64,000 nucleotides of DNA from NCBI GenBank assembly GCA_963810935.1, contig CAWEPK010000003.1:32001-96000 (forward strand), written 5' to 3'. Of this stretch, positions 1 through 16,448 are shown piece by piece. Position 1 is the first letter of the stretch; each line of letters opens with the position of its first letter. Both the position numbers and the translations under genes were made by a program. The stretch is from an uncultured delta proteobacterium (lineage in GTDB: Bacteria; Desulfobacterota; Syntrophorhabdia; Syntrophorhabdales; WCHB1-27). Below the pieces are notes generated by a model that was given only the letters and a program-made list of their open reading frames with translations, was not told where the DNA came from and did not search any database.

Positions 1-289
1 TTCCGGAAAATTCCATGACGATGCCGCCGTCCGCGGTCGGGGATATGAATGAATCGTGTTTCTCCGCCGTTATGCCGGTCAGGGGATGGAACCAGTGCGT
101 GTAGTGTGTGGCCCCTTTCTCAATGGCCCAGTCCTTCATGGCGTTCGCAACTATGTCCGCGACATGCGGCTGCAAGGGCAGATCTTTTTCGATCGTTTGC
201 CTCAGGGCCTTGTAAATTTCCTTGGGGAGTCTTTCCTTCATGACCTTATCGTTGAAAACGTTGGAGCCGAAAACTTCCGTAAGCTTCAT
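1..289 (-). CDS. glnN: Glutamine synthetase type III, N-terminal part (runs off window edge)
   Basis: Manual translation from ATG at 289 (not in the ORF track): [26 protein letters not shown]...[32 protein letters not shown], the GSIII N-terminal signature; AAGGAGGA RBS upstream. Confidence 0.93.
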
Positions 290-398
290 GGTCTTATTTT
301 TCCTCCTTGCTTTTTTGTAAATCCTCTCGGACATGGGAGAACAGGCCCAATGACCTTACAGGTCCATTTTTATGCGAGATGTGTAACGTCTCGCCGTT

Positions 399-428
399 TA
401 CAAGTAAAATCTACACTAATATGGTAAC
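399..428 (-). promoter_or_regulatory. Putative alternative-sigma promoter GTTACCA-N16-ACTTGTA upstream of glnN
   Basis: Same 7+7 bipartite motif with the same 16-nt spacer at 2472-2501 and 12169-12198. Confidence 0.75.
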
Positions 429-471
429 TCCCGCCACTGGATTCTCTCGGCGGCTGCCGGAATCCGGCGGC

Positions 472-813
472 CTACCCTATGGCGCTGCCGTCGCGCTCGC
501 CGGTCCGTATCCGGATGCACTCCTCCAGGGGCAGCACGAATATCTTGCCGTCCCCGATTTCTCCGGTACGGCCTCCCTTGATGATCGCCTCGGTCGTCCG
601 CTCCACGAAATCATCGTTGACTGCTATAAGAAGCTGGACCTTTCTGAGCAGGTTTCCCATCTCCTTGACGCCCCTGTAGACTTCGGTCACGCCCATCTGG
701 CGTCCGTGGCCCAGCACCTCGCTTACCGTTATCAGGTTTACTTCCGCCTTGTACAGTTCTTCCTTTACCGCCTCCAGCCTGTCCGGTTTAATAATGGCGA
801 TAATTACTTTCAT
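472..813 (-). CDS. glnK: P-II nitrogen regulatory protein (GlnK/GlnB family)
   Basis: MKVIIAIIKP...GHGRQ...YRG...TGEIGDGKIFV...IRIRTGE; directly downstream of amtB. Confidence 0.95.
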   Translation of the reverse strand: MKVIIAIIKPDRLEAVKEELYKAEVNLITVSEVLGHGRQMGVTEVYRGVKEMGNLLRKVQLLIAVNDDFVERTTEAIIKGGRTGEIGDGKIFVLPLEECIRIRTGERDGSAIG

Positions 814-836
814 GCTCTCCTCCCTCCTCTTAACTT

Positions 837-860
837 TCGGCGCTCGCATACGCTCGCTTT
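837..860 (+). repeat. Partial copy (3' tail) of the intergenic REP-like repeat family
   Basis: TCGGCGCTCGCATACGCTCGCT resembles the tails of the copies at 2145-2222 and 46727-46805. Confidence 0.55.
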
Positions 861-893
861 AATACCCTGCTGCTTGCAGCAGGGTATTTATCG

Positions 894-2120
894 TTATTCG
901 AGTATCGTATATGCGTTCTCGTTGTGCTGCGTGAGGTCGAGGCCCATGATCTCTTCCTTTTCGGGGACCCTCATACCTATCACCCAATCGACCACCTTGT
1001 AAAGAATAATACTTGCGACGAAGCTGTACGCGAGGGTCACCCCGACGGCCGCTGCCTGGATCAGGAGCTGCTTGGGGTTGCCCAGGAAAAGGCCGTTCGC
1101 ACCATCCGGGTTGACGAGCTTCGAGGCGAAAAGCCCGGTGGCCAGCGCGCCGAAGACGCCGCCGACGCAATGGACGCCGAAGGTGTCGAGCGAGTCGTCA
1201 TATCCGAGCAGCGGCTTCACGATTGCGACGGCCAGGAAGCAGAAGAGGCTGACGAATATGCCTATAATGATGGCCGGGATGACGCTTACATAGCCGGACG
1301 CCGGCGTGATCGCCACGAGTCCTGCGACTGCACCCGTTGCCGTACCGAAGGCCGTCGGCTTGCCGTTGTGGATCCATTCTATAAACGCCCATGAAAGGCC
1401 GGCCGTCGCAGCGGCTGTATTAGTCACCACAAACGCGTTTACCGCCAGGCCGTTCGCAGCCAGGGCGCTGCCCGCGTTAAACCCGAACCAGCCGAACCAG
1501 AGCAGCGCGGTGCCAAGGATAACGTGCGGCAGGTTGTGGGGCGGAATGGGCTTCTTATCGTAGCCTTTCCTTTTGCCTATCAGGAGGCAGGTGGCCAGCG
1601 CCGCGATGCCGGAATTGATATGGACGACGGTGCCCCCCGCGAAATCGAGCGCCCCCAGGTCCTTAAGCCATCCGCCTATGCCCCATACCCAGTGTGCGAC
1701 GGGGTCGTAGACAAAGGTGGCCCAAAGGACAATGAATACGCAGAACCCGGAGAACTTCATGCGCTCCGCGAATGCTCCCACGATCAGGGCAGGCGTTATG
1801 ATGGCGAACATGGCCTGGAAGATCATGAACGCCTGGTGGGGGATCGTCGGCGCGTAATCCTTAAACACTTCCAGGCCGACGCCGTTCAGGCCCGCCCACT
1901 GGAGGCCGCCCCAGAACCCCTTGCCGGGCCCGAACGCAAGGCTATACCCGTAGAGTACCCACTGGAGGCTGATAATCGCGAGGATCGTAAAGCACTGCAT
2001 CAGCACGCTGAGGACGTTCTTGCGCCGAACCATACCCCCATAAAAGAAAGCCAGGCCGGGGGTCATGAGCATTACCAGTGCCGAGCACGCCAGCACCCAT
2101 CCAGTATCACCCGTGTTCAT
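894..2120 (-). CDS. amtB: Ammonium transporter (paralogue 1)
   Basis: LMTPGLAFFYGG, DFAGGTVVH, WFGWFGFN and DDSLDTFGVH motifs; twin His present; start at MNTGDT after GGAGG RBS. Confidence 0.97.
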   Translation of the reverse strand: MNTGDTGWVLACSALVMLMTPGLAFFYGGMVRRKNVLSVLMQCFTILAIISLQWVLYGYSLAFGPGKGFWGGLQWAGLNGVGLEVFKDYAPTIPHQAFMIFQAMFAIITPALIVGAFAERMKFSGFCVFIVLWATFVYDPVAHWVWGIGGWLKDLGALDFAGGTVVHINSGIAALATCLLIGKRKGYDKKPIPPHNLPHVILGTALLWFGWFGFNAGSALAANGLAVNAFVVTNTAAATAGLSWAFIEWIHNGKPTAFGTATGAVAGLVAITPASGYVSVIPAIIIGIFVSLFCFLAVAIVKPLLGYDDSLDTFGVHCVGGVFGALATGLFASKLVNPDGANGLFLGNPKQLLIQAAAVGVTLAYSFVASIILYKVVDWVIGMRVPEKEEIMGLDLTQHNENAYTILE

Positions 2121-2144
2121 GAAAGTCTCCTCCTTGGACTCAAA

Positions 2145-2222
2145 CAATTATTGGGGCTCAGCACCCCCTCCACCGGCAAAGCCGGCGGAGCCACCCTGCT
2201 CGGCGCTTCGCATTCGCTCGCT
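2145..2222 (+). repeat. REP-like intergenic repeat, full copy
   Basis: CAATTATTGGGGCTCAGCACCCCCTCCACCGGCAAAGCCGGCGGAG...; close homologues at 46727, 52439, 52533, 62431. Confidence 0.8.
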
Positions 2223-2253
2223 TTTTACTGCCGGCGCTCGGTACTCGCTCCGG

Positions 2254-2309
2254 CAGTAATCGGGTTTGACACCACCTCCACGAGCAAAGCTCGCGGAGCC
2301 TCCCCCTCA
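2254..2309 (+). repeat. REP-like intergenic repeat, second copy
   Basis: CCTCCACGAGCAAAGCTCGCGGAGCCTCCCCCTC hairpin shared with the family. Confidence 0.7.
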
Positions 2310-2324
2310 TAAAAAGGAAAGGGC

Positions 2325-2445
2325 AAAATAAAAAGGCGCCTCCTGTCCTTCAAGTACGTGGACAAGGGACGCCTTCGTCCGGTCGCCAGGGCAAAAAAAT
2401 GGCGCTCTTTTCTAAGAACGCCGCCGTTTTAACACTTCAACGTGT
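2325..2445 (-). promoter_or_regulatory. Putative ANTAR-responsive leader of amtB1-glnK with two tandem intrinsic terminators
   Basis: Hexaloop hairpins ACAC-GTTGAA-GTGT (2432-2445), AAC-GGCGGC-GTT (2417-2428) and GGAC-GAAGGC-GTCC (2367-2380); the last two overlap the 5' arms of terminators at 2393-2422 and 2325-2373. Confidence 0.65.
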
Positions 2446-2471
2446 CTGCCCGATCTGCGGGCTTATATGAC

Positions 2472-2501
2472 TACAAGTAAAAGTTTAAGTCTTTTGGTAA
2501 C
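2472..2501 (-). promoter_or_regulatory. Putative alternative-sigma promoter GTTACCA-N16-ACTTGTA upstream of amtB1
   Basis: Second exact copy of the bipartite motif; about 26 nt upstream of the first leader hairpin. Confidence 0.75.
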
Positions 2502-2504
2502 CGG

Positions 2505-2596
2505 CAATTATTGGGACACCCGCAAGCGGGTACCCGGTCGCCCCCTCCACGTGCGAAGCCCGTGGAGCCTCCCCCTCACAGACTCGCTTTCGCTCG
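2505..2596 (+). repeat. REP-like intergenic repeat, variant with an extra internal hairpin
   Basis: CAATTATTGGG...CCCCCTCCACGTGCGAAGCCCGTGGAGCCTCCCCCTC. Confidence 0.7.
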
Positions 2597-2601
2597 TGGT
2601 C

Positions 2602-3834
2602 CTAGGTACCCGGCGGTTTGCAGCAGGGTAATCTCGAAAGGCCCGGAAAGAGGCGCGCCCATGTGCACCTTGCCTTGATAAGCCCGCCTGTTTCCTGCGA
2701 GACGTCGATCTTTTTGCCTATCAGGCTCACGTAGAGGCCCTCGTTCTGCACGTCGCCCACAAAGGCGAAGCCTTTGAGCACGCCGTCTTCCATCAGGACC
2801 TTCCTGCAAGACCGCTCGTCCTCTTCCCGCAAGACGCCCGGCCCTTCGTCCCTGCTCCTGCCGGCAGTAAATATGGAGACGCCGAATACGCGCAGGACGT
2901 TCCTGGCAAGGCTTCCCGCATATGCGGCCTGCGCCCCCGACATATTGAAGGCCGCTATCCTGCCCTGCTCCACAGCGGCGGGCCACAGGGCATTTACCCT
3001 CGGCTCCCCGTAAACGACGTCCATCGTCTCGACTGCGTCGCCCGCCGCAAAAATGCCGGGCAGGCTTGTCTCCTGGCGATCATCGACGCATATGCCTTTC
3101 TTTACGTCTACGCCGCTGCTTGCGAGAAAGGCGGTGCAGGGGCGGACCCCTTTGCCGAAAATTACCAGGTCGCAGGCCCTCCCGCCGCCCGATTTAAGAG
3201 AAACTTCTCCGTCCTCCCCGATCTCCGTGATGTCGTCGCCGGTGAGGACCTCCACCCCCAGCGCTTCTGCTTTCCGGCGGACGAATTCCGCTGCCGGCTT
3301 GTCGAGCATCGAGGAGAGAATGCGGTCCGAGGAGACGACATAGGTGATTTCCATGCCCAACTTGCGCAGCGCGTCGCCCGTTTCCATGCTCACCGGGCCC
3401 GCGCCCGCTATAACGGCCCGGCCTGCGCTCCCCTTGACCAGCCCCTTCATCCGGGCCACATCGGGCAGGTCGCGGACGGTGAAGACAAACGGCAGGGAAG
3501 CGCCCTTCGTTTGCGGTTTTTCCGGGACGCCGCCGGTCGCGATAAGCAGCCTGTCATAGCTGAAGTCCCGGCCCGGACGGACAAGCACCCGGCGCCTGTA
3601 GTGGTCTATCTCCGTAACCTCCGCACCGGTAATGACCGATACGCCTTCCGGGACAGGCAGAAAAATGTGCTTTTCTTCCACCTCATTCGAAAGGCGGTAG
3701 GGCAGGGCCATCTTCGCGTAGGGGGCGACCCCCTCCTTCGACAGAACCGTAACGGCGCTTGCGGGATCGAGGCGTCGCAGCCATGCAGCGGCCGTCATCC
3801 CTGCGGGACCTGCGCCTATGATAAGGTAGTTCAT
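2602..3834 (-). CDS. NAD(P)/FAD-dependent oxidoreductase (AorC-like subunit)
   Basis: IIGAGPAG, LLIATG, TSLPGIFAAGD motifs; last gene of the aor operon. Confidence 0.85.
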   Translation of the reverse strand: MNYLIIGAGPAGMTAAAWLRRLDPASAVTVLSKEGVAPYAKMALPYRLSNEVEEKHIFLPVPEGVSVITGAEVTEIDHYRRRVLVRPGRDFSYDRLLIATGGVPEKPQTKGASLPFVFTVRDLPDVARMKGLVKGSAGRAVIAGAGPVSMETGDALRKLGMEITYVVSSDRILSSMLDKPAAEFVRRKAEALGVEVLTGDDITEIGEDGEVSLKSGGGRACDLVIFGKGVRPCTAFLASSGVDVKKGICVDDRQETSLPGIFAAGDAVETMDVVYGEPRVNALWPAAVEQGRIAAFNMSGAQAAYAGSLARNVLRVFGVSIFTAGRSRDEGPGVLREEDERSCRKVLMEDGVLKGFAFVGDVQNEGLYVSLIGKKIDVSQETGGLIKARCTWARLFPGLSRLPCCKPPGT

Positions 3835-3843
3835 TGTCCGGTC

Positions 3844-5647
3844 CTAAAGGTCGAGCTCAGCGAGCTTCTCCTTGCCCGGCACCCCTGTCGCGCTCCATCC
3901 GCGCAGGCTGTAGTACTCGGGCAGCATCTTCACAAGCTCGCTCACGTGCCCCTTCGCTCCGCCTTCGGCCAGAGGCACTTTCAACAGGCGCTCGGGCAGC
4001 GTATCGTCTTTCGCCGTAAACCCGGCCTTGATATTATAAAGGCGCTCGAGGTTCCAGATGCGCTCGCCCGCCTTCATAAATTCGTCGGTCGTGTACGGGA
4101 CGCCGGTAGCAGCGCTCAATAGCTCCGCGATCTCGTCCGCGCCGATGCCGAAGGTGGCAAAGAGGCACATGCCCGTCGAATCGAGGGCCGCTGTCAGGTT
4201 CTGGAAGATAATGACCCACTGTGCCTTTCCAACGGTCGCCGTCATATCGATTTTCACAGGGTTGCCGAGCACCTCCACCGCCGTCGTGTAGCCCCGGACG
4301 TGGCAGCCGCCCCGGTTGCCCGTTGCATAATTGAGCCCTATGCCCTGCAGGGCCCGCGGGTCGTAAGCGGGCATCTCCTGCTTCTTCACGGTCATCGAAT
4401 ACTCCGGATGCTCGTAGCTCGCTGCGAGCCGGTAGCTCCCCATCCCAAGCTTTTTGCCGAACCCGACGCCGACGCCTGTCAGGCGGACCATCTCGACCAT
4501 GGCCTCCGCGTTGCCGAAATTCAACGGTATGCCCCCCGTCTCATCGAGACCGATAATACCGTCTTCGAACATCTCCATCGCGCAGGCGACGGTCGAGCCC
4601 ATGGAGATCGTGTCGATGCCGTATTCGTTGCAGAGGTAATTCGCCTTCGTCACCGCATCGAGGTCGTCGACGCCGCACGCGGGCCCGAAGGCCCAGGCGC
4701 TCTCGTACTCCGGCCCCTCTCCGTGGCCCGCGTATTTGGGGTTGGTGACCCGCGTCGCGCGGCCGCAGCTTATGATGCAGGAAAAACACCCTCTGGGGCG
4801 CGTAAGGATCTGTTTGGAAAGCGATTCGCCGCCGACCCTGTCAGCACCGGCAAACATGGGCTGCCGGAAGTTACGGGTGGGCAGGCCGCCGCTTTCGTTG
4901 AGGATATTGACCAGCACGTCCGTTCCGAAGGCCCGCAACCCCCCGCCGCCCACGGGGTGGCTCTTTATCTTCGTCCAGGCATTCGTCATCGCCTTCCGGA
5001 AGGCGTCCGCGTCGGCTACCCGGACCGCGCCTGTGCCCCGGACTGCCACCGCCTTGAGGTTCTTGGCGCCCATGACGGCCCCGACGCCGGTCCGCCCGGC
5101 CGCCCGGCCGTACTCGTTCATGATATTCGCCATGAGGACACCACGCTCTCCGGCAGGCCCGATGCAGGCGACGCTCGCCTCCGGGTCCGTCTCGAGCCGC
5201 ACCGTGTCCGTAGTCTTGTCGGCCGTTTTCCCCCAGAGATGGGCCGCGTCGCGGACCGCAACCGCGTCGTCGTCGATCCAGATATAGACCGGTGTTCTTC
5301 GCCTGCCCTTCAACGACCAGAAGGTCGTAGCCCGCGTACTTCAGCATGGGGCCGAAGACGCCGCCCGAGCTGGAGGCCGCGATCGTGCCCGTAAGGGGGC
5401 CTTTCGTCACGACATCGAAGTGGCCCGCGGACGGGGCGTTCGTGCCCGAAAGCGGCCCAGGCGCGAAGATCAGCTTGTTCTTCGGGCCCAGCGGATCGAT
5501 GGAGGGGTCCGTCTCAGCGAACATCAGATAGGTCCCGAGCCCGCGGGCGCCGATATATTTTTTCGCCGTTGAAAGATCGAGCGGCTCTTTGACGATCGAC
5601 CCGCTCGATAAGTCGATTCGGAGGATCTGGCCGGTCCAGCCGTTCAT
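3844..5647 (-). CDS. aor: Aldehyde:ferredoxin oxidoreductase family W/Mo enzyme (AorB); +1 frameshift near 5295
   Basis: Two overlapping ORFs (MNGWTGQILRIDLS...; GRTGVGAVMGAKNLKAV, CFSCIISCGR, GPEYE, GIDTIS, RGGCH) join into a 600-aa AOR if one base is removed. Confidence 0.9.
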
Positions 5648-5649
5648 CG

Positions 5650-6126
5650 CTACACCTCCTCAAAGCTCTTTTTCAGTTCCGAGGCAATGGCCCTCTGGCG
5701 CGACCGCACGGCATCGGCCTCGTCGACGTAGACGATGGCCTGGGTGGGGCAGAAGGCTACGCATTCCGGCTCTCCCCCGCACAGGTCGCACTTGACGATG
5801 CGCCGCTTCGCGGTCTCGTAAACGACCGCGCCGAAGGGGCAGGCAAGCGCGCACATACGGCAGCCGATGCATTTTGCCTCGTCCCAGCCAACGAGGCCGA
5901 GGGCGCGGTCTTCGTGCATTGCCGTGGTAGGGCAGACCCCAACGCATGGTGCGTCCTCGCACTGCTGGCAGGTGGTGGGCACGGAAAAACCATCCGGCTC
6001 CCACGAAGCGACGTGGATGCGCGCCGTGTGGGGACGGAATTCTCTGTCATGGAAGAAAGAGCACGAAAGCTCACAGTTACGGCAGCCGGTGCACCGGTCC
6101 GGATAGATCATCAGCATTTTACTCAT
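5650..6126 (-). CDS. 4Fe-4S polyferredoxin subunit (AorA/CooF-like)
   Basis: CTGCRNCELSC, CQQCEDAPCVGVCP, CIGCRMCALACP, KCDLC. Confidence 0.9.
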   Translation of the reverse strand: MSKMLMIYPDRCTGCRNCELSCSFFHDREFRPHTARIHVASWEPDGFSVPTTCQQCEDAPCVGVCPTTAMHEDRALGLVGWDEAKCIGCRMCALACPFGAVVYETAKRRIVKCDLCGGEPECVAFCPTQAIVYVDEADAVRSRQRAIASELKKSFEEV

Positions 6127-6499
6127 TGCATGCCTCCCTAAGATAGAAGACTATCCGCGCATACCGGGGCCGCGCCGAAGGTACTTATTTGCGAACGGCC
6201 CCATATGCCTCTTTCCAAAGCATATACGCGCGGTTAGGCGACTTCAATATGTCTTATTTGACATAAATAGAGTGTTTTTTGCGGCTGGACTCGGACCTCC
6301 TGATTTAAGGATGCAAGGCGCACCGAACGTTCGTCGTCCTCGCTGCAAGGAGTAACAGTGTTTCTCTCGCCTCAGCTTTCCCTACACTATTACGAGTGGC
6401 AATCGATGAGGCTTGTAGTTTCCAAAGCAATCAGCTAATATTTACGGCTATTGTACACAATCCTCGACACGCTGACACAGGTTACGGAGGGTCCGGAGC

Positions 6500-9400
6500 A
6501 TGTTGGGCAGATTTCGTTCATGGTCCATAAGCACACATTTAATAACTTTGATAGCTTTCCTGGCAGTCCCCTCCATTAGCCTCATTATCTACTCGGGAAT
6601 AGCCGCGCGCAGGACGGCGATAGACGATGCCGGCGGGGAATGCCTGACACTAGCGGGCAATATTGCGGGTCAGCAGCAGTCCATGGTTGCAGGCGCGGAA
6701 CAACTAGGGGCCGCGCTCTCTGCTCTTCCCCAGGTGCAATCTCGAAACCCCGTCGCCGTCAATGCCCTTTTCTCCGAGCTTTTAAGAAAGAATCCTCAAT
6801 ATGCCAATATCGCCATCTGCGACAAATCGGGCCTGGTCTGGGCATCGGCGCTCCCCGAGGGGGAAAGGGTATCGGTGGCCGACCGGAGGTTCGTTCGGGA
6901 AGCGTTCCGCACGGGGATGTTTTCTTCCGGTGAATACATCGTAGGCCGAATATTGAAAAAACCTGCCATCAGTTTTGGATATCCCGTGAAGGACGTGGCT
7001 AATGAGGTGACAGCAGTAATAGGAATTGTCCTCAACCTGGAATACGCCCAGGGGATGTTCGATAAGCTCGACCTCCCTTCCGGAGCGTCGTACGCCCTTC
7101 TCGACCACCAGGGGGTCATTCTCACCAGAAATATAAATGATCCCCTTACAAAGGGCCTTGTCGGACAGCGTGACACTGTGAAAGAGCTGTTCACAGGCAT
7201 GAAGGCTCCGCCCGAAGAGACAACTTTTCAGGCCATGGGGAACGAGGGGAAGTTCAAGCTGGGCGCCTACAGGAGGATTCGCCTGCCGCATGAGGCGGAG
7301 CCCTATATGTATGTCCGTGCCAGCATACCTCTTTCCTCCGCCGTCGCCGCTGCAAACGCGGCCATGTTCCGCAACCTGGCAACCTTCGTGTCCTTGTTCC
7401 TCACCGGGTTGTTTCTGGCCTGGTTCATCGGGAAGCGCGTCATAGTGAACCCCTTGATGATGTTAAAGGGGGCAGCCGGGCAGTTGGCCGCCGGTGCGGA
7501 TACGGTCAATGTGGCTTCCGTTGTGACAGGCGGCGAACTCGGAGAGTGGCTCGCGCATTCGACGATATGGCTGAGACTTTGATTCAGGAAAAGACCGCCC
7601 TTCGGACAAGCGAGGAGCGTTGGTCCACCACCCTCGCCAGCATAGGGGATGCAGTCATTGCAGCCGATGTTGAAGGAAAGATCACATTCATGAACGCCGT
7701 TGCTGAAGGGCTGACCGGCTGGACTCTCAAAGAAGCCGGAGCGAAACCAGTGACGGAGATATTCAACATCATCAACGAGCAGACCCGTGATCAGGTTGAG
7801 AACCCTGTCATAAAGGTGCTCCGGGAAGGCGTGATCGTCGGTCTTGCGAACCATACGGTCCTCATTAGGAAAGACGGATCGGAGGTCCCCATAGACGACA
7901 GCGGCGCTCCCATAAGAGATGAGGTCGGTAACACCAGCGGGGTGGTACTCATTTTCCGCGATATCACCGAGCGTAAACTGGCCGAAGAGGAGCTTCGTCA
8001 AAGCGAAAAGCGGTATCGGGAACTCTTCGAGACGATGTACGAAGGTTTCATCCTCGGGGAAGTTATAACAGACGAGCAGGGCAGAGCGGTGGATCACCGA
8101 TATCTCGATATCAATCCTCGTGCGGAGCAGCAATTCTTTAAGCGTCCTAGAGAGGAGATTGTTGGCAGTACATATAGAACGGTTGGAGGGGCACGGGCGG
8201 CTGATGAGTGGGCAGAACTGCTCGGTAATGTCGCAATAACTGGCGAGCCTGTATCTGTAGAGCGTTATGCGCCCGTAGGCGATCAGTGGATACACTTGGC
8301 TGCATACTCCCCCCGGATCGGGCAGTTTGCCGCAGTCTTCGAGAATATCACCGAGCGCAAGCAGGCCGAAGAGGCGGTTCAAACAACTCTAAAGCGCCTC
8401 TACACCGTTCTTGCGAGCATGTATGGCGGTCTCTTACTTGTAACGGACGAGAGCCGAGTTGAGTTCGCCAATCAGGCGATTTGCGACTATTTCGATTTGA
8501 GCGAGTCACCCGCAGACCTTGTGGGGCTTACCTCATCCGAAATCTTTGCAAAAATCACTGAAGCCTATTTGCACCCTGATGAAGCGACTGCCCGCGTCAA
8601 GGAAATAGTGGATCGAGGACAACCCGTAGCAAACGAAGAAGTGGCCATGCACAACGGGCGCGAACTCCTACGGGATTTTATCCCCATACGTGTAAACGGA
8701 AAATCGTCTGGCCGGTTGTGGTACCACACAGACATCACCGAACGCAAGGCTATGGAGGAGGCATTACAAAAGGCCCACGACGATCTTGAACAACGAGTGA
8801 TCGAGAGAACTGAGCAGCTCGTTAATAGCGAAAAGGAGTTTCGCTTACTTGCCGAGGCCATGCCCCAAATTGTCTGGATTACCAGAGCGGACGGCTGGAA
8901 CATCTATTTCAACCAGCAGTGGGTGGACTACACGGGACTAACGCTTGAAGAAAGCTACGGTCATGGCTGGAACACACCGTTCCATCCCGATGACAGGCAA
9001 CGCGCCTGGGACGCCTGGCAGAATGCGGTAACGAACAACGGCACTTATTCTCTTGAATGCCGTTTGCGGGCAGCGGATGGGACATATCGCTGGTGGCTGG
9101 CCCGTGGCGTGCCTATTGTGAACGAGGAAGGAGAGACTACGAAGTGGTTTGGTACCTGCACCGATATTGAGGAGCTTAAGAGAGTTGAGGCTCAGCTCCG
9201 CCAGGCGCAGAAAATGGAGGCCCTTGGCACGCTCGCGGGAGGCATCGCCCACGACTTCAACAATATCCTCGCCGCCATCATCGGGTTCACTGAGCTTGTG
9301 GAGGACCACGTCCCTAAAGCGAGCCGGGAGGCACATCACCTGAAGAGGGTCCTGGAGTCTTCCTTGCGAGGCAGGAACCTGGTGCGGCAGATGCTCACCT

Positions 9401-10332
9401 TCAGCAGAAAGGGAGAGCAAGAGAAGAAACCCATGAGTTTGAGCAGCCTCGTCAAGGAGACTGTCAAGCTCATTCGGGCGACCACGCCGACGACGATCAG
9501 CATCAAGGTCAGCACCGGAAGCGAATCGGGTATAATCCTCGCAGACCCTACACAGATGCAGCAGGTCGTCATGAACCTCTGCACCAATGCTGCGCACGCC
9601 ATGCGGGAGAAGGGCGGGACCCTCGACATAAGATTGAACAATTACAACGTCTCTCCATCGGATGGATACCCCCACGGGATCAACCCCGGCCTTTATACGA
9701 GGTTGACCGTCAGTGATACCGGCACCGGCATGTCCTCCGACATCCTCGATAAGATATTCGACCCCTTCTTTACCACGAAGAAATTGGGAGAGGGCACGGG
9801 TCTCGGCCTTTCCGTTGTCCACGGTATCGTGAAGCAATCCAACGGGCATATTACCGTATACAGTGAGCCGGGCAGAGGGTCCGCATTCACCCTGTATTTC
9901 CCTCAGATCACAGACACGGGAGAGCAGGAAGCCTATGCAGCTACTGACGACGAGATTCCCACCGGCTCCGAGCGCATCCTCTTCGTCGATGACGAAGAAG
10001 CTATCGTGGAAATGGGCGAAGACATCCTCGCGGAGCTTGGCTACGACGTGACGTCCCGGGTGAGCAGCAGGGAGGCCCTTGCGCCCTTCAAGCTCGACCC
10101 ATCCCAATTCGATCTTGTCATTACCGACCAGACCATGCCCGAAATGACGGGCGTTGAACTTGCGAAAGAGATCCTCGCTCTCAGGGTGGACATGCCTATC
10201 ATCATGTGCACGGGTTTCAGCTATGTAGTCAATGAGGACAAGGCCAAGGCGGCAGGCATCAAAGCCTTTGCCATGAAGCCCCTAACGAAAAGGGAGATCG
10301 CCCAGACGATCAGAAAAGTACTCGACCAGTAA
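6500..10332 (+). CDS. Hybrid sensor kinase (Cache-HAMP-multiple PAS-HisKA-HATPase-REC); -1 frameshift near 7546
   Basis: ORF 6500-7582 (TM-Cache-TM-HAMP) joins ORF 7546-10332 (AGGIAHDFNN, DPFFTTK, GTGLGL, REC) at GE[L]ARAFDDMA. Confidence 0.88.
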
Positions 10333-10635
10333 GCCCGGTTGCACCTTCCGACTGGTAATCGGTCGTATTCTTCAAATCTCGATTCCGATCAGTTGTAGGT
10401 GAAGGCAACAATCTATGTATGCACTTCCTTAATGTAAATTTCAAAACACATTGAATACTTTTGCGCAATTTGAAGTAAAGAATGACGAGCGCCTCGTTGG
10501 AAGTAAAACGCGTCGGATTCCGTCAGTCTTTAGCCCTCGGTGCACATCCACGTCTAATCGATTTCTTGAGGCGCTCATCCGCCCGTTATTGCCGCAGAGA
10601 TGTCTTTGGAGGACGAGGAACGCGCCGGGCAAGAA

Positions 10636-10761
10636 GCGGCTGCGTATAAAGATGCAGATTTGGTGAAGCGCAAGCCCGAGGAACGGAGGCGTACTCTTTG
10701 TGTACGTCGGAGTCCCGCAGGGCGCGGCGCTACGCCAAAGATGCGCTTTATACGCAGCCGC
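10636..10761. repeat. Long inverted-repeat (MITE/REP-like) element downstream of amtB2
   Basis: Perfect 16-bp terminal IR GCGGCTGCGTATAAAG / CTTTATACGCAGCCGC with further internal pairing. Confidence 0.6.
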
Positions 10762-10767
10762 CCACCC

Positions 10768-11997
10768 CTACTCCATTACGGTATAGGCCGACTCGCGGTG
10801 CTGGCTCAGGTCCAGCCCCACAATCTCTTCCTTCAAGGGCACGCGGACGTCGGTGAAGAGATCGACTGCCTTATAGATGATGTAGGTGGCGACCAGGCTG
10901 TAAGCCGCGACTGCGCCAGTTGCCAGGAGCTGGACAAGGAACTGCCGGCTGTTGCCGAAGAACAGGCCGTCAGCCCCTGCCGCGTTGATCGCCTTCGAGG
11001 CAAATAGGCCCGTAACCAGCATGCCGATGATGCCGCCTATGCCGTGCACGCCGAATGCGTCGAGGGAGTCGTCGTAGCCGAGCTTCGGCTTAATCAGGCT
11101 GACGCAGATAAAGCATATTATGCTCGCGATGAGCCCTATGATTATCGCGGGGAAGGTGCCCACGAAGCCGGAGGCCGCCGTGATCGTGGCAAGGCCCGCG
11201 ATCGAGCCGGTTATCGTGCCGAACATGGTGGGCTTGCCCGTGAAGAGCCATTCGAGAACGGCCCACGTCAGCCCTGCGGTCGCAGCGCCTATGTGCGTGA
11301 CTACCAGGGCATGGACCGCAAGGCCGTTCGCGGCCAGCGCGCTGCCTGCGTTGAACCCGAACCAACCGAACCAGAGCAGCGCTCCGCCCAGCACGGTGAA
11401 GGGCAGGTTGTGCGGGGGAACGGGCCTGTTCTTATATCCGGTGCGCCGGCCGATGACCAGGGCCGTAACGAGGGCGGCGATGCCCGCATTGATGTGGACG
11501 ACGCTGCCTCCCGCGAAATCAATCACGCCCATCTCTTTCAGCCATCCCCCCACGCCCCATACCCAGTGGCAAACGGGGTCGTAAACGAAAGTCGCCCAGA
11601 GGACGGTGAAGATAAGAAAAGCGGAGAACTTCATGCGCTCGGCGAACGCGCCGATGATGAGGGCAGGCGTGATGATCGCAAACATGGCCTGGAAGATCAT
11701 GAAAGCCTCATGCGGAATAGTCGGCGCGTAGTCGGCGTAAGGGGCTGCGCCGACGCCCGCGAGACCGGCCCACGCAAGGCTGCCTATGAACTTATTGCCC
11801 GGTGCGAACGAAAGGCTGTAACCGAAGAAGACCCACTGGAGCGTAAGAATACAAAGGACTACGAAGCACTGCATGAGGACGCCGAGTATGTTCTTGCGCC
11901 GCACCATCCCGCCATAAAAAAAGGCAAGCCCTGGCGTCATGAGCATCACGAGCCCGGTAGAGATCAACACCCACGCGGTATCACCTGCGCTTATCAT
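10768..11997 (-). CDS. amtB: Ammonium transporter (paralogue 2)
   Basis: Same Amt motifs (DFAGGSVVH, WFGWFGFN, DDSLDAFGVH). Confidence 0.97.
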   Translation of the reverse strand: MISAGDTAWVLISTGLVMLMTPGLAFFYGGMVRRKNILGVLMQCFVVLCILTLQWVFFGYSLSFAPGNKFIGSLAWAGLAGVGAAPYADYAPTIPHEAFMIFQAMFAIITPALIIGAFAERMKFSAFLIFTVLWATFVYDPVCHWVWGVGGWLKEMGVIDFAGGSVVHINAGIAALVTALVIGRRTGYKNRPVPPHNLPFTVLGGALLWFGWFGFNAGSALAANGLAVHALVVTHIGAATAGLTWAVLEWLFTGKPTMFGTITGSIAGLATITAASGFVGTFPAIIIGLIASIICFICVSLIKPKLGYDDSLDAFGVHGIGGIIGMLVTGLFASKAINAAGADGLFFGNSRQFLVQLLATGAVAAYSLVATYIIYKAVDLFTDVRVPLKEEIVGLDLSQHRESAYTVME

Positions 11998-12082
11998 TCC
12001 TCTCCTCCCTGGAGTTATCTATGCGGCGACCGCGCCTGCTTGCTTGCGCGGCAACGCCCTTTCGAAAGGCCTTCAGGTGCGC

Positions 12083-12138
12083 AAAAAAGGCTTTCCCTTA
12101 CCGGTAACCTCAATGTTTCCTCGACACGCCAATGTGTC
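12083..12138 (-). promoter_or_regulatory. ANTAR-type dual hexaloop RNA motif in amtB2 leader
   Basis: GACAC-ATTGGC-GTGTC (12123-12138), 5-nt linker, AAC-ATTGAG-GTT (12106-12117); both loops have A1 and G4; followed by a weak hairpin and T6. Confidence 0.72.
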
Positions 12139-12168
12139 AGATTGCGCTTTGGAAGGACTTCCGCCTTT

Positions 12169-12198
12169 TACAAGTCGAAAAGGTGCGTTGATGGTAAC
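12169..12198 (-). promoter_or_regulatory. Putative alternative-sigma promoter GTTACCA-N16-ACTTGTA upstream of amtB2
   Basis: Third exact copy of the motif, just downstream of the sigma-factor stop codon. Confidence 0.75.
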
Positions 12199-12217
12199 TC
12201 GGGGGGGTGCGGCTCGT

Positions 12218-12859
12218 TTAGTTCCGGCAGCCTGCGGTGAGGCGCCTGCTGCCTTTGCGGCCGGCTGCGCGCCCGTTGAGCCTCTCGTATTTTGCCCTTA
12301 TCTTATTGCGGATCTTCACGACGCTGACATGGGAGATGCCCAGTTTCTGCCCTATTTCCCTCGTGGTCAGGCCTTCGAGGCAGAAAAAAAGGACGTCCCG
12401 TTCCCTCTGGCTCGTGCCGGACCCCGTCATCGCCTCAACCTCCAGTATGGTCTCCACCTGGTCGCACGACGGGCGGCCCTCCGCAATGAGCATCTCTTCG
12501 AGGTGCGGCCCGTCCTCTTCCATTATGCGGTTGAGGCTCAAAAGCGTGGTGGGGTCATGCGCTTTCCTTATGTAGTTCTTGAGGTGGAAATAGCAGCCCT
12601 GGAGTATATAACTGTCCGTCTTGTCTTCCAGGTTGCCCGCCAGGAAATCGCACCACAGGTGGATCAGGGCCTCCTGAAGAAGGTCCTGGTCGTCCATGAA
12701 GGAGAAATGGCCGTTCAGCTTGCGGGCAATCCTGCGGAGCGTGGGCGAGAGCTTATCGACGAGGGACTCAAAGGAGAAGTAGCCGGTCCTCGTGCGGACC
12801 TTCTGCGTTCCGGCCGTGTTGTCTACGCTTACAAGATGTCTGCTCGCCATTTCTTCCAT
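12218..12859 (-). CDS. Alternative sigma-70 family RNA polymerase sigma factor (regions 2 and 4; ECF/SigH-like)
   Basis: Region 2-like DDQDLLQEALIHLW...LKNYIRK; region 4 HTH GLTTREIGQKLGISHVSV; no adjacent anti-sigma. Confidence 0.85.
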   Translation of the reverse strand: MEEMASRHLVSVDNTAGTQKVRTRTGYFSFESLVDKLSPTLRRIARKLNGHFSFMDDQDLLQEALIHLWCDFLAGNLEDKTDSYILQGCYFHLKNYIRKAHDPTTLLSLNRIMEEDGPHLEEMLIAEGRPSCDQVETILEVEAMTGSGTSQRERDVLFFCLEGLTTREIGQKLGISHVSVVKIRNKIRAKYERLNGRAAGRKGSRRLTAGCRN

Positions 12860-12876
12860 CCTATGCCCCTCAAACG

Positions 12877-12971
12877 AAAAAAGGCGTCCGAACCCTTTTT
12901 AAGGTTCAGGACGCCTGAGTCCTCTGATTGTCTTTTGCCTACGCAGGCAACGGGAAAGACTTCAATGTCTT
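12877..12971 (-). promoter_or_regulatory. ANTAR-type antitermination leader of the sigma-factor gene
   Basis: P1 AAGAC-ATTGAA-GTCTT (12956-12971); P2 GGAC-TCAGGC-GTCC (12909-12922) overlaps the strong terminator GGCGTCCTGAACCTT-AAAA-AGGGTTCGGACGCC-T6 (12877-12915). Confidence 0.75.
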
Positions 12972-12980
12972 CTTTTCAGT

Positions 12981-13009
12981 AGTATCCTACAAAAACGTAT
13001 CCCTGTCAA
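12981..13009 (-). promoter_or_regulatory. Sigma70-type promoter of the sigma-factor gene
   Basis: TTGACA-N17-GATACT immediately upstream of leader P1. Confidence 0.7.
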
Positions 13010-13080
13010 GCTTGATCGGACGGTAAAACGCGTTTTTTTCTTAGGGGTTGTAAGAGGAGGGCGGTTCGCCGGCTGCTTTT

Positions 13081-14304
13081 CTAACGTCTTATGTCCGCTG
13101 CCACGATGATCGCGTCAGCCACTTCCCTCATGCTCTTTCTTAAGTCCATGCTCTTTTTGTGGATCTTCTTGTACGCCTCGTCCTCTCCGATGCCCATCTC
13201 CTTCATCAGCACGCCCTTGGCCCTCTCTACGACCTTCCTCGTCTCCAGGGCCTCTTTCGCCGACAGTATCTCCTGGTCGAGGCGCGTGTTCTCGATCGCC
13301 ACGGCCGCCTGGTTGGCGATGGCCTGCATGATGTCGATCTCCTCCCTGGAGAAGTTGTGCTGCTTCTGCATGTAGCTGTTTATGACGCCGATGACCCTGT
13401 CCTTAATCATCATCGGCACCGCTATCATGGAGACGACGCCCTCTTTCTTTGCGACGTGCGGGTACATATAGCCCGGCTCTTTCGTAACGTCGGCAACAGT
13501 GATGGGCCGTTTTTCGAGCACCACCCTGCCTGCACTCGATTGGCCCACCTTCAGGTTCGGCTTGTTGATGTATTCCTGGCTGAGGCTCTGCGTTGCCGCA
13601 ATGACAAGCTCCTGCTTCTTTTCGTCGAGGAGCATGATCGAGCAGATCTTCGTGCCCATCACCTGGGCGGTCATGGTCACGATAAGCTGGAGTATCTCTT
13701 TCAGGTAGTAATCGGAGACGATGGTGCGGCTTACCTCCGACAGGAGGTCGAGCTGCTTGGCTTTCCTGTTGATCTCTTCGTAGACGACCGCGTTCTCGAT
13801 GGCGCTCCCCAGGTACTTCGAGATCGTGAAGAGCAGGTTTACCTGGTCCTCGGGATACTCGTACTCTTTTTTGTGGTGCAGGTTCATAACGCCCGTGATC
13901 TTGTCCTTCGCAAGGATGGGGACCGCCAGAAACGCCTCGTACTTGTCTTCGGCCAGCGCGGTGAAGCTCTTGAACCTCGGGTCCTTGTACGCCTGGCGCG
14001 CGAGCGCGACGGGCTTCTTTTCCTTTGCGGCCCAGCCGGTCACGCCTTCGCCCAGCTTAAGCTTGATCGCACCCACGACCTTGCTGTGGCCCGTGCCCGC
14101 GGCGCGGAGCGTCAGTTCGTCGTTCTGCTCGCTATAAAGATAGATAAGGCACGAGTCTGCGCCGGTCAGGCCGACCACCATATCGACGATATGGGCGAGA
14201 AGCTCGTTCAGCTCCAGGTTGCTGCTGATATGCTGGGCCACCTGGTGTAAGATGGCCATCTCCTGTTCTTTCGCGCTCTGTTTCCGCCCTGCTTTGGTCG
14301 CCAT
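13081..14304 (-). CDS. GAF-GAF-ANTAR RNA-binding antiterminator
   Basis: Two GAF repeats (LGEGVTGWAA...DPRF...FLAVPI; SMIAVPM...IGVIN) and a C-terminal ANTAR (LETRKVVERAKGVLM...EDEAYKKIHKKSMDLRKSMREVADAII). Confidence 0.92.
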   Translation of the reverse strand: MATKAGRKQSAKEQEMAILHQVAQHISSNLELNELLAHIVDMVVGLTGADSCLIYLYSEQNDELTLRAAGTGHSKVVGAIKLKLGEGVTGWAAKEKKPVALARQAYKDPRFKSFTALAEDKYEAFLAVPILAKDKITGVMNLHHKKEYEYPEDQVNLLFTISKYLGSAIENAVVYEEINRKAKQLDLLSEVSRTIVSDYYLKEILQLIVTMTAQVMGTKICSIMLLDEKKQELVIAATQSLSQEYINKPNLKVGQSSAGRVVLEKRPITVADVTKEPGYMYPHVAKKEGVVSMIAVPMMIKDRVIGVINSYMQKQHNFSREEIDIMQAIANQAAVAIENTRLDQEILSAKEALETRKVVERAKGVLMKEMGIGEDEAYKKIHKKSMDLRKSMREVADAIIVAADIRR

Positions 14305-14342
14305 TGGTGCTCCGTACGAGAATAAGCCCGGAATAAGAGTCT

Positions 14343-14371
14343 ATCTTATTGTATCGCACCCCCTTTGTCAA
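14343..14371 (-). promoter_or_regulatory. Sigma70-type promoter of the ANTAR gene
   Basis: TTGACA-N17-TAAGAT. Confidence 0.55.
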
Positions 14372-14434
14372 CCTTGCCCTGCCTTGCGTTTCAGCCGCTC
14401 CCGGCTCGCGAATAAAATCTATTTCCCATAGAGA

Positions 14435-15505
14435 TTGTTATGTGATAGAAAGATGTGCGAGGTAAATCCGGAAATGGTTGGCAGACAGAACGAGATGGAC
14501 CGGCTGCTCCAGGCCCTGCGCGACCCCGACTGGGAGAAGCGCTTCAAGGCCGCCGAGGGGCTCGGCAAGCTGAAGAGGGCTAGGGCAGTGCGGCCGCTTA
14601 TCGAGGCGCTCAAGGACGAAGAGGAATACGTCCGGGAGGGGGCCGCCTGGGCCCTGGGCGAGATAGGCCACAAGATGGCGGTCGAGCACCTGACGGAAAC
14701 GCTCGCAGACAAGGACAGGTACGTGCGGGAGGGGGCCGTGACCGCCCTCGGTAAGATAAAAGACCCGGGTGTCGTCGCTCCGCTCGCGGGCTCGTTGAAA
14801 AACCCGGAAGAATCGATGAGGCGGGCCGCCGAAGAGGCCCTGGGAGGGCTCGGGCCCGCCGCACTCGGAGAGATTGCCGGTCTGCTGACGGATGCGGACT
14901 GGGATATCAGGTGGAGGGTCACGCACATAATGGGGCGCATCAAGGACGGCTCGGTCGTCCCCGCCCTGTGCGCAAGCCTGAAGGACGAGAACAAATACGT
15001 GCGGGAAGGGGCGGCGGCGGCGCTCGGCGAGATAGGGGACAAAAAGGCCGTGCCGGCGCTGGTCGAGGCCCTGGGCGACCAGAATAAATACGTGCGCGAA
15101 GAGGTCGTGAACGCCCTGGGCGAGCTGGGCGACAAAAGGGCGGTTGATGCCCTCATGGGCGCCCTCGACGATGCGGACTGGGGCGTCCGGTGGGGCGCAA
15201 CGAACGCCCTTGGCGAGATAAGGGACAAAAAGGCGATTGATGCACTCATCCTCCGCCTGAAAGACGAAGCGCGATACGTCCGCGAGGGCGCGGCGCTCGC
15301 CCTCTCCAGGATAGGCAGGGCGGCGGTCCCGACGCTCATCGAATCCCTCAGGGACAAAGACCGCAACATAAGGCGCTGGGCCGCCTGGACCCTGGGTAAG
15401 ATCAAGGACGAGAGGGCCGCCAGGCACCTCATAGGGGCGCTCAACGACGAGGACGGGGGAGTGCAGTTCGCCGCAGAAGTCGCCCTCGCCGAGATGGAAG
15501 AGTAA
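14435..15505 (+). CDS. HEAT (PBS-lyase-like) repeat protein; start uncertain
   Basis: About 11 tandem 31-aa repeats of the form YVREGAAxALGEIGDKxAVxxLxxALxD. Confidence 0.85.
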   Translation: MLCDRKMCEVNPEMVGRQNEMDRLLQALRDPDWEKRFKAAEGLGKLKRARAVRPLIEALKDEEEYVREGAAWALGEIGHKMAVEHLTETLADKDRYVREGAVTALGKIKDPGVVAPLAGSLKNPEESMRRAAEEALGGLGPAALGEIAGLLTDADWDIRWRVTHIMGRIKDGSVVPALCASLKDENKYVREGAAAALGEIGDKKAVPALVEALGDQNKYVREEVVNALGELGDKRAVDALMGALDDADWGVRWGATNALGEIRDKKAIDALILRLKDEARYVREGAALALSRIGRAAVPTLIESLRDKDRNIRRWAAWTLGKIKDERAARHLIGALNDEDGGVQFAAEVALAEMEE

Positions 15506-15548
15506 CCGTAGCGCAATCTACGAAAAAGGAATATCTTAAGGTAAGACC

Positions 15549-16448
15549 ATGACGTGCTACATGTGCGTAAAGGTGCCCGTAGCGAACCTGCGAAAGACGC
15601 CCAAAGAGGCCATGCCGCTCCTCGTCCGCGATGAAATGCAGGAGAGCCAGCTTCTTTTCAACGAGGTCGTCGCAGTCCGGGAGGAGCGCGGCGATTGGCT
15701 GGCGGTCGATGCGCTCGAGCAGCAGAAGCTCGTCGACGGCACATGGCAGGGCTACCCCGGCTGGATGCGAAAAAAGGACCTTGCGCCTGCGGACGGGCCT
15801 GCACCCTATAACGGTGTAGTAAAGGCGCCCTTCACGACGGCGCGCATTTTACCCGCCGCAAAAGCAGCGGCCGTTTTCCCTCTGGGCCTCGGCACGAGAC
15901 TCTCTTTCACGGACGAGGCGAAGGGGTTTCTGGGGTTTGCGATGGAAGGCGGGAAGCCTGCGTGGGTGGCAAAGGATGCGATTGCGTCGATGCCGCCCAA
16001 AGGCGGCGTAAAGCCCGCGGAAGTAGTCAGGCTCGCACGCCTTTTCCTGGGCGCCGTCTACCTGTGGGGCGGCCGCTCGATGCCGATGCCCTGGGCGGTC
16101 GGCCCCGTCATGGGCATCGATTGCTCGGCCCTCGCGAACCTCGCCTTTCGCGCTGCAGGAATCGATTTACCGAGGGATGCCCACGATCAATGCAAGGCGG
16201 CATCGTCGATAGAGGCAGCATCGTTGAAGGCGGCGGACCTGGTCTTTCTCGCCTCGGCAGGCGTTGACGATACGGTGCGCCACGTGATGGTCCACCTGGG
16301 CGGCGAGCGCCTGATCGAAGCCGCCCAGACGGGCGACATGGTGCGGATAAGCACGTTTCGTGAAAGGCTCGGCGTCTCACTGAAGGAGATCGCGAAAGGG
16401 CATGGCACAGGCCCGGAGAGAAAAATATACTTCGGAAGGATTCTATAA
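15549..16448 (+). CDS. NlpC/P60 cysteine peptidase (YkfC-like, SH3b-like N-terminus)
   Basis: YLWGG...GIDCSAL...LPRDA...DLVF...HV. Confidence 0.85.
   Translation: MTCYMCVKVPVANLRKTPKEAMPLLVRDEMQESQLLFNEVVAVREERGDWLAVDALEQQKLVDGTWQGYPGWMRKKDLAPADGPAPYNGVVKAPFTTARILPAAKAAAVFPLGLGTRLSFTDEAKGFLGFAMEGGKPAWVAKDAIASMPPKGGVKPAEVVRLARLFLGAVYLWGGRSMPMPWAVGPVMGIDCSALANLAFRAAGIDLPRDAHDQCKAASSIEAASLKAADLVFLASAGVDDTVRHVMVHLGGERLIEAAQTGDMVRISTFRERLGVSLKEIAKGHGTGPERKIYFGRIL

Follow-up and report, generated by a model that had tools for sequence, protein, structure and literature searches.

The known global nitrogen regulators of bacteria are DNA-binding factors or sigma54 activators. NtrBC with sigma54, GlnR/TnrA and NtcA all act as DNA-binding activators or repressors, and their regulons comprise amt, glnK, glnA or glnN, glt, urea uptake and NifA-type activator genes. 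Here we describe a locus in a 64,000-nucleotide (nt) stretch of the genome of an uncultured Syntrophorhabdales bacterium (the window) that appears to serve a regulon of the same composition, but differs from these systems in having no sigma54 box and a non-palindromic site. It encodes a GAF-GAF-ANTAR protein and, behind it, a small sigma-like protein (the sigma), and we propose that the former gates synthesis of the latter by antitermination.

Three bodies of work bear on the parts of this system. Geobacter sulfurreducens, from a related phylum, has a two-layer nitrogen control in which GnfL/GnfM and GnfK/GnfR combine alternative promoter recognition with ANTAR antitermination at the nifH, glnK and amtB leaders (PMC2995071). 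There, sigma54 and its activator GnfM stand on top and the phosphorylation-driven GnfK/GnfR acts downstream, whereas in the window a one-component GAF-ANTAR protein is predicted from the sequence to stand on top and to gate a sigma70-family factor, with a sigma54 activator among the targets. EutV, NasR and AmiR act, as predicted here, at hairpins with a six-nt loop carrying G at position 4 (G4 hexaloops) that overlap intrinsic terminators, and the window ANTAR protein keeps their RNA-binding residues; predicted ANTAR nitrogen regulons already include PII, amt, glutamine synthetase (GS) and one NAD+ synthetase gene (PMC3369931, PMC8934654, PMC12591593). In contrast to the REC, NIT or AmiC sensors of those proteins, the window protein carries GAF domains, and its system is further set apart by a sigma gene as target, tandem terminators, a 31-nt structured linker and a variable loop position 1. 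Extracytoplasmic function (ECF, group 4) sigma factors consist, like the window sigma, of sigma2 and sigma4 only, joined by a variable linker, and are co-encoded with targets under a bipartite promoter (PMC7826278). Unlike them, the window sigma has a housekeeping promoter in place of autoregulation and no conserved anti-sigma neighbour that we saw, and appears dedicated to nitrogen assimilation. The parts are of known kinds, namely ANTAR control of nitrogen genes (PMC3369931), a cascade in Geobacter (PMC2995071) and ECF-type sigmas (PMC7826278), while neither the sigma family nor this layering turned up in the literature and supplements searched. No paper joining an ANTAR protein to a sigma factor was found in that literature, most subscription papers lying outside its scope; a term search of seven supplements of PMC3369931 did not return the word sigma, and ANTAR, ammonium and the promoter motif described below were not found in the available passages of PMC7826278 and part of one of its supplements.

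In the proposed cascade, expression of the GAF-GAF-ANTAR protein is probably constitutive, and its activation probably comes from a metabolite signal of low nitrogen that the GAF domains sense. Once active, the protein would bind to G4-hexaloop hairpins and thereby disable the terminator 5' of the adjacent sigma gene, and the sigma would then bring RNA polymerase to nitrogen-assimilation genes that have a GTTACCA-N16-ACTTGTA promoter, in this genome amtB2, amtB1-glnK, glnN and a NifA-like activator gene on another contig. Targets with a hexaloop attenuator behind the promoter would need both the sigma and active ANTAR protein (a coherent feed-forward loop), while for the window glnN the sigma would suffice. 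In Omnitrophota that lack the sigma, the same leaders stand behind housekeeping promoters, which suggests that an ANTAR-only regulon came first and that the sigma layer was added to it. On the comparative evidence set out below, we consider this ANTAR-gated nitrogen-sigma cascade as a whole to be probable.

The first-pass annotation, made from the letters of the window alone, had reported one exact bipartite motif at three nitrogen-assimilation units, and this is borne out (Table 1). GTTACCA-N16-ACTTGTA has four exact copies in the 4,057,801-bp genome, against none for a reversed-pattern control: three lie in the window and the fourth, followed by a hexaloop leader, precedes a NifA-like GAF-AAA-HTH gene (G000:C7:726-2486, L218) that is a conserved motif target in nine relatives. 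The product of this gene scores 508.6 bits against a TIGR01817 cut-off of 528.85, and nifH was not found in the genome, so that control of nitrogen fixation through this target is not supported. A further site, one mismatch away from the motif, lies before the gene of a 677-amino-acid (aa) amino-acid permease (G000:C3:115286-117398, L217), a possible fifth regulon member. Both of these sites are outside the stretch that was first read and thus lend independent support. In 61 genomes of the order there are 73 exact sites (reversed control, 3), 51 of them annotated, in genomes that are kin rather than independent. Nitrogen-type targets account for 40 of the 51 (amt 16, NifA-like 9, glnA 7, glnN 5, glutamine amidotransferase 2, urtA 1); the remainder precede barrels (6), a sigma (1) or unassigned genes (4). 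Beyond the genes first named, the predicted regulon would include the NifA-like activator gene, glnA, gltB, urtA and genes for outer-membrane barrels.

A looser form of the motif was scanned over the best 80 of 212 confirmed sigma-homologue loci in the GTDB collection, the same 80 loci on which the synteny counts below are based. It gave 93 matches, compared with 14-17 per shuffle, and 92 of these had a span of 28-29, 88 of them on the sense strand of the cassette, making the motif directional and non-palindromic. Among the 78 sense-strand matches with 16-nt spacing, 75 carry the full consensus, and the final codons of the sigma gene often fall within the motif. The first hexaloop starts at least 6 nt behind ACTTGTA, never nearer, and within 38 nt in 66/71 cases, a spacing that is expected of a -10 element and leaves no room for another promoter; nor do the three window sites have a properly spaced housekeeping -10 on their sense strand. 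These features suggest that the motif is likely a promoter read by the adjacent sigma. Although rpoN is present, neither TGG-N10-GC nor a sigma54 consensus with up to two mismatches was found in the five upstream regions scanned (glnN, amtB1, amtB2, sigma, ANTAR), in agreement with the first reading. None of 23 activator matches in the genome reaches the NtrC cut-off, and its 23 strict sigma54 sites have no obvious nitrogen target.

The distribution of the motif follows that of the sigma. Among 121 Omnitrophota genomes, 15/22 with the sigma and 0/99 without it have the exact motif, and since 56 of the latter retain the ANTAR gene, the motif tracks the sigma and not the ANTAR protein. Twenty loci surrounding ANTAR genes in Omnitrophota that lack the sigma yielded no second sigma, and amt-glnK-glnN or gdhA, where they stand behind the ANTAR gene, have housekeeping-type promoters with hexaloop leaders. 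The seven sigma-positive Omnitrophota without an exact motif all belong to one divergent eight-member clade with a changed sigma2 loop. By a hand tally of this clade (L162-L169) against the rest, GTTACCA is kept and the -10 is relaxed, ACTTGTA being exact at 0/14 local sites compared with 96/105 elsewhere. In a second clade of two genomes (L026/L039), the sigma4 helix reads SHMMVWK and 5/5 sites read GTTGAC; these precede omp, omp, glnN and amt, with one unassigned. In ECF factors sigma4 reads the -35 and sigma2 the -10 element (PMC7826278), and both changes thus fall where expected. The motif comparison that had been suggested as a check therefore confines the motif to sigma-bearing genomes and finds it varying with the domains that would read it, with four exceptions (G003, G006, G021 and G031).

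The leader of the sigma gene had been described as a housekeeping promoter followed by an ANTAR-type leader and terminator, and promoter, hexaloops and terminator all stand. Taken alone, the promoter is not significant (five promoter-like sites in 15 kb, 5.4 in shuffles); it is supported because TTGACA-17-GATACT is conserved across aligned leaders. The 20 leaders in this alignment, picked by hand, share the promoter, a first hexaloop hairpin (P1), a hairpin that is the first terminator in Omnitrophota, a second hexaloop hairpin (P2) and the terminator. Compensatory two-sided changes occur at 9/17 consensus pairs, all within the terminator, and the P1 and P2 stems pair in 92% of cells and are nearly invariant. 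This conservation of the attenuator before the sigma unit favors the first reading, as do the outcomes of the other two sequence-based checks, on the motif and on synteny. The 3' strand of P1 overlaps the hairpin that in Omnitrophota forms the U-tailed first terminator, and the U tail has been lost in the window. Across relatives, leaders of the sigma unit (from ANTAR to nadE or sigma) contain a C-G-closed G4 hexaloop in 56/62 cases, against 8.1 in shuffles and 7, 6 and 4 with the other bases at loop position 4, and a terminator in 44/62 against 6.2. Leaders behind the motif have the hexaloop in 73/80 (7.6 shuffled) and a terminator in 68/80 (8.0 shuffled). At least two hexaloop hairpins are present in 40/62 sigma-unit and 57/80 motif leaders, compared with 0.5 in each shuffled set. 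The feed-forward arrangement, first drawn for the amtB genes only, fits their leaders and would be broader, as most motif promoters elsewhere carry hexaloop leaders; these include homologous glnN leaders, with hexaloops in 7/8 by the same scan, while the window glnN is without any.

Within the window, the sigma, amtB1 and amtB2 leaders each have two stems of at least 3 bp with 6-nt loops and G4. The short linker of known targets is found in the amtB1 (P1-P2) and amtB2 leaders, and P2 overlaps the 5' arm of the terminator in the sigma and amtB1 leaders. For amtB2 this overlap is weak, as is the terminator itself, which was missed by terminator scans, so that of the ANTAR-type hairpins claimed for both amtB leaders the hexaloops hold and the amtB2 terminator is the weaker part. 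A occupies loop position 1 in 149/249 loops, the window loops beginning with A, T, A, A, G, G and G; in EutV, A1 makes no contact with the protein (PMC8934654). A strict genome scan for dual hexaloops with a terminator gave three matches, all in the window, and none with A, C or T at position 4, but as its pattern was derived from the window leaders it is informative only as to rarity elsewhere. A loose single-hairpin scan was set aside as too noisy (41 G4 matches, 10-17 in controls), and Rfam gave no meaningful match over positions 1-16000 (two matches, E 0.72 and 2.7).

Synteny, another of the checks proposed at first reading, places the sigma homologues beside ANTAR and nitrogen genes in several phyla, the loci being labelled Syntrophorhabdales, Omnitrophota, Planctomycetota, Elusimicrobiota and Firestonebacteria. 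An ANTAR gene lies at most 2.3 kb upstream of the sigma gene in 60/80 loci (59/69 with enough flank), and amt, PII, GS or glutamate synthase (GOGAT) genes occur in 43/80. The first gene downstream of the sigma encodes a barrel, Amt, PII-type or NifA-like protein in 38/80 loci, with 17 unlabelled and 25 having none. The tandem order of the window, with sigma directly behind ANTAR, recurs in 13/80 loci; adjacency is otherwise not the rule, since a glutamine-dependent nadE lies directly upstream of the sigma in 58/80, within 40 nt in 41, and in most relatives opens the ANTAR-gated unit. The sigma is present in 46/61 genomes of its own order, and no homologue was found outside that order in a 101-genome sample of the phylum, or in plasmids. 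A quick tree of the sigma was made with L052 left out. The window locus lacks the cassette-type nadE; another glutamine-dependent nadE, encoding 688 aa, occupies 17697-19763, 3 kb upstream of the ANTAR gene.

The position of nadE bears on the alternative that survives best, in which regulation does not act through the sigma, although the sigma does read the motif: its level would be leaky and constant or controlled post-translationally, for example by PII, nitrogen would be sensed only by the ANTAR protein at the target leaders, and the upstream attenuator would serve mainly nadE. Such an arrangement would account for nadE standing next to the sigma, for an ANTAR match before an NAD+ synthetase gene in a supplement of PMC3369931, for the hexaloops that 73/80 motif targets carry themselves and for the non-canonical linker of the sigma leader. 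It is harder to reconcile with the 13 loci in which ANTAR and sigma are adjacent, whose listed leaders place the attenuator in front of the sigma, and with several Omnitrophota in which an additional terminator separates nadE from the sigma gene. The window glnN has a promoter without an attenuator and could respond only through the sigma. We regard this alternative as unlikely and continue to favor a cascade in which synthesis of the sigma is the gated step.

The ANTAR protein, the only one in the genome, matches PF03861 with E 1.4e-20 (73.3 bits, Pfam cut-off 27.3) and GAF over two stretches with E 1.9e-40. All seven RNA-contact residues of EutV (R142, K143, K149, E160, Y164, M172, R175) are retained, and the protein differs from EutV at R168, N173 and R177 (H, D, S). 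Among homologues, the EutV residues that contact G4 and the loop are kept at R142, K149 and M172 in 63/63, at Y164 (as Y or F) in 62/63 and at E160 in 56/63. It is thus likely to be an RNA-binding antiterminator of G4-hexaloop leaders, as predicted from its sequence, and would provide a first candidate function for GAF-ANTAR proteins, which are termed uncharacterised in PMC3369931. Its GAF1 is nearest to the GAF domains of PtsP (EI-Ntr), which in E. coli bind glutamine and 2-oxoglutarate (PMC13104625). GAF2 is the domain held in common with single-GAF Omnitrophota homologues (52% identity).

That this protein is activated by low nitrogen is likely. A different possibility is that the wiring is right and the input is not low nitrogen, either because GAF senses energy, carbon or a nucleotide or because the polarity is reversed in some lineages. 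GAF ligands are not readable from sequence, the single-GAF homologues lack the PtsP-like GAF1, and in the sigma-less Omnitrophota L199, L205, L208-L210, L212 and L213 the ANTAR leader precedes an NADP glutamate dehydrogenase gene (gdhA; confirmed by family scan in L199), followed by a shared gene block. Geobacter represses glutamate dehydrogenase under nitrogen limitation (PMC2995071). Against this, the targets are almost all genes for ammonium, urea or amino-acid uptake and for GS-GOGAT. Known systems turn on genes of these kinds when nitrogen is limiting, and Geobacter amtB and glnK are among those that respond in this way (PMC2995071). A different input therefore seems improbable, and we retain low nitrogen as the likely signal.

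The sigma itself belongs to an uncharacterised family (1098 clusters by word search), and its closest named relatives are from Syntrophorhabdales. Its Sigma70_r4_2 score is 19.3 (cut-off 25.7), and as curated family cut-offs are not reached, it is not filed in a named ECF group. A profile built on the family of the window sigma matches both region 2 and region 4 of FliA and SigB. The AlphaFold model (mean pLDDT 72) shows helices at 30-101 and 132-200 with a low-confidence linker between them and no sigma3 or sigma1; the N domain is sigma2-like with three helices. Every Foldseek match listed for this model is a sigma70-family chain (best E 1.4e-4, just two with E < 0.001), with ECF types prominent and SigH, SigL, SigE, RpoE and SigW included. 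The motif is absent upstream of the window's own sigma gene, which therefore lacks the autoregulation of group 4 sigmas. No co-encoded anti-sigma is conserved among the neighbors in the 80 loci, although no profile search aimed at anti-sigmas was made. A paralogue (L018/L122, G011:C459) has the motif both upstream, as for self-activation, and downstream. The protein is likely a group 4-like member of the sigma70 family with sigma2 and sigma4 only. That the motif is instead the operator of an ordinary DNA-binding regulator, be it a LuxR/GerE-type protein without sigma activity or, for instance, a CRP-family factor, would agree with the best Pfam match and the sub-threshold sigma score given below, with the weakly inverted motif halves (TTAC/GTAA) and with a CRP-family gene in 29/80 loci (a cassette neighbor in one lineage), but is very improbable in view of the sigma2-like N domain, the strict one-way orientation of the motif and its 6-nt lower bound to the leader, the separate covariation of -35 with sigma4 and of -10 with sigma2, and the absence of a housekeeping -10 at the three window sites.

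Several observations weigh against the cascade that we favor. For the sigma protein, TIGR02937 scores 40.5 bits against a cut-off of 42.9, the top Pfam match is GerE, and the model has a pTM of 0.43. In the sigma leader, P2 has U at loop position 1, and the P1-P2 linker is 31 nt with an inner hairpin, as in homologues. EutV tolerates linkers of 5-12 nt (PMC3369931) and its antitermination is abolished when the linker is lengthened by 20 nt (PMC8934654), so that the sigma leader falls outside this range and is better described as an ANTAR-type variant than as a canonical target. The inner hairpin may shorten the linker, or the hexaloops may each control a separate terminator, an option that fits single-hexaloop binding (PMC8934654). 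Covariation in P1 and P2 is weak (2/10 pairs; 143/500 shuffles equally high). Among 54 loci with at least 5 kb downstream, 26, mostly Syntrophorhabdaceae, lack amt, PII, GS and GOGAT genes in their vicinity. The exact motif is missing from 15/46 sigma-positive genomes of the order, most of which have one-mismatch sites, and the covariation of motif and sigma amounts to two clades or events only, with G111 of the relaxed -10 clade having two exact sites on another contig. Four sigma-negative relatives carry the motif or a near copy: nadE of G031 runs off its contig, G006 and G021 are 84% and 75% complete, and G003 has the motif and an ANTAR gene, with neither leader nor sigma found behind the latter. 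The polarity, finally, is not certain because of the ANTAR leaders before glutamate dehydrogenase in sigma-less Omnitrophota.

With these points considered, we find it reasonably probable, if less so than the cascade itself, that the locus represents an undescribed form of global nitrogen control in anaerobic, mostly uncultured bacteria. A dedicated nitrogen sigma of the sigma70 family, whose synthesis would be under the control of protein-dependent RNA antitermination instead of an anti-sigma, would have been grafted onto an older ANTAR regulon, moved as a cassette between phyla and replaced NtrBC, standing above sigma54 by way of the NifA-like activator. If true, this would add a nitrogen-dedicated sigma70-family factor and an ANTAR-gated sigma to known nitrogen control. 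The near-invariant 14-base promoter would predict nitrogen regulons in uncultured Syntrophorhabdales and Omnitrophota, the natural specificity variants of sigma and promoter make their pairing directly testable in E. coli, and the two-input module is compact enough to be of use in synthetic circuits.

The tandem ANTAR and sigma genes upstream of amtB2, as first annotated, are confirmed by open reading frames and profiles, and positions 11285-14500 (amtB2-sigma-ANTAR) are reproduced gap-free by short-read contigs, from reads that may include the source sample. The sequencing runs listed as carrying the sequence include none of RNA.

Table 1. Features of the predicted nitrogen-sigma system, in window positions; all system genes are on the minus strand
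Feature	Positions	Strand	Details
GAF-GAF-ANTAR antiterminator gene	13081..14304	-	407 aa; GAF stretches and ANTAR domain by profile
ANTAR-gene promoter, housekeeping type	14343..14371	-	TTGACA-17-TAAGAT; leader of about 30 nt, no attenuator seen in it
Sigma-gene promoter, housekeeping type	12981..13009	-	TTGACA-17-GATACT; conserved in aligned leaders
Sigma-leader hexaloop hairpin P1	12955..12972	-	loop ATTGAA (A1, G4); at predicted RNA 5' end
Sigma-leader hexaloop hairpin P2	12908..12923	-	loop TCAGGC (G4, U1); mutually exclusive with terminator
Intrinsic terminator 5' of sigma gene	12877..12916	-	segment of -23.6 kcal/mol, U6 tail
Sigma factor gene (sigma2 and sigma4 only, ECF-like)	12218..12859	-	213 aa
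amtB2 promoter motif	12169..12198	-	GTTACCA-N16-ACTTGTA, exact
amtB2 leader	12083..12138	-	hexaloops ATTGGC (12133-12128) and ATTGAG (12114-12109); 5-nt linker, weak terminator
amtB2 ammonium transporter	10768..11997	-	open reading frame and family profile
amtB1-glnK promoter motif	2472..2501	-	GTTACCA-N16-ACTTGTA, exact
amtB1 leader	2325..2446	-	hexaloops GTTGAA, GGCGGC, GAAGGC; tandem terminators 2422-2393 and 2374-2325
amtB1 ammonium transporter	894..2120	-	open reading frame and family profile
glnK (PII)	472..813	-	open reading frame and family profile
glnN promoter motif	399..428	-	GTTACCA-N16-ACTTGTA, exact; neither hexaloop nor terminator 3' of it
glnN (GSIII_N, glutamine synthetase III), 5' end	1..289	-	runs off left end of window

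Beyond the window, the glnN side leads toward a metV-metF-split glutamate synthase cluster. A dispersed repeat of about 42 nt, at 2536-2580 and 2275-2309, flanks the amtB1 promoter and leader and has 44 blastn matches genome-wide. Two neighbors were considered as parts of the system and rejected as bystanders: the AOR operon (2602-6126), which shows no sign of membership, and the hybrid kinase (6500-10332), which lies in a block (6268-10623) absent from the two closest relatives (L001, L002). The AOR gene (3844-5647) is frameshifted near 5300 and the kinase gene near 7546; both frameshifts are probably assembly errors, and at both sites short-read contigs from two runs each differ by one base.

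Motif promoters in relatives are followed by several gene types of their own interest. The first gene often encodes an unannotated secreted or beta-barrel protein (L102:1719-2603, L051:973-1773, L121:1598-2896), a candidate outer-membrane channel for nitrogen sources. In L012 (11816-13786), L015, L030 and L035, an amino-acid permease with a PII domain fused to its C-terminus stands under the motif promoter. A small gene whose C-terminus resembles, by eye, a Fis-type helix-turn-helix lies directly before gltB in the Omnitrophota cassettes L162, L163, L167, L173, L174 and L176.

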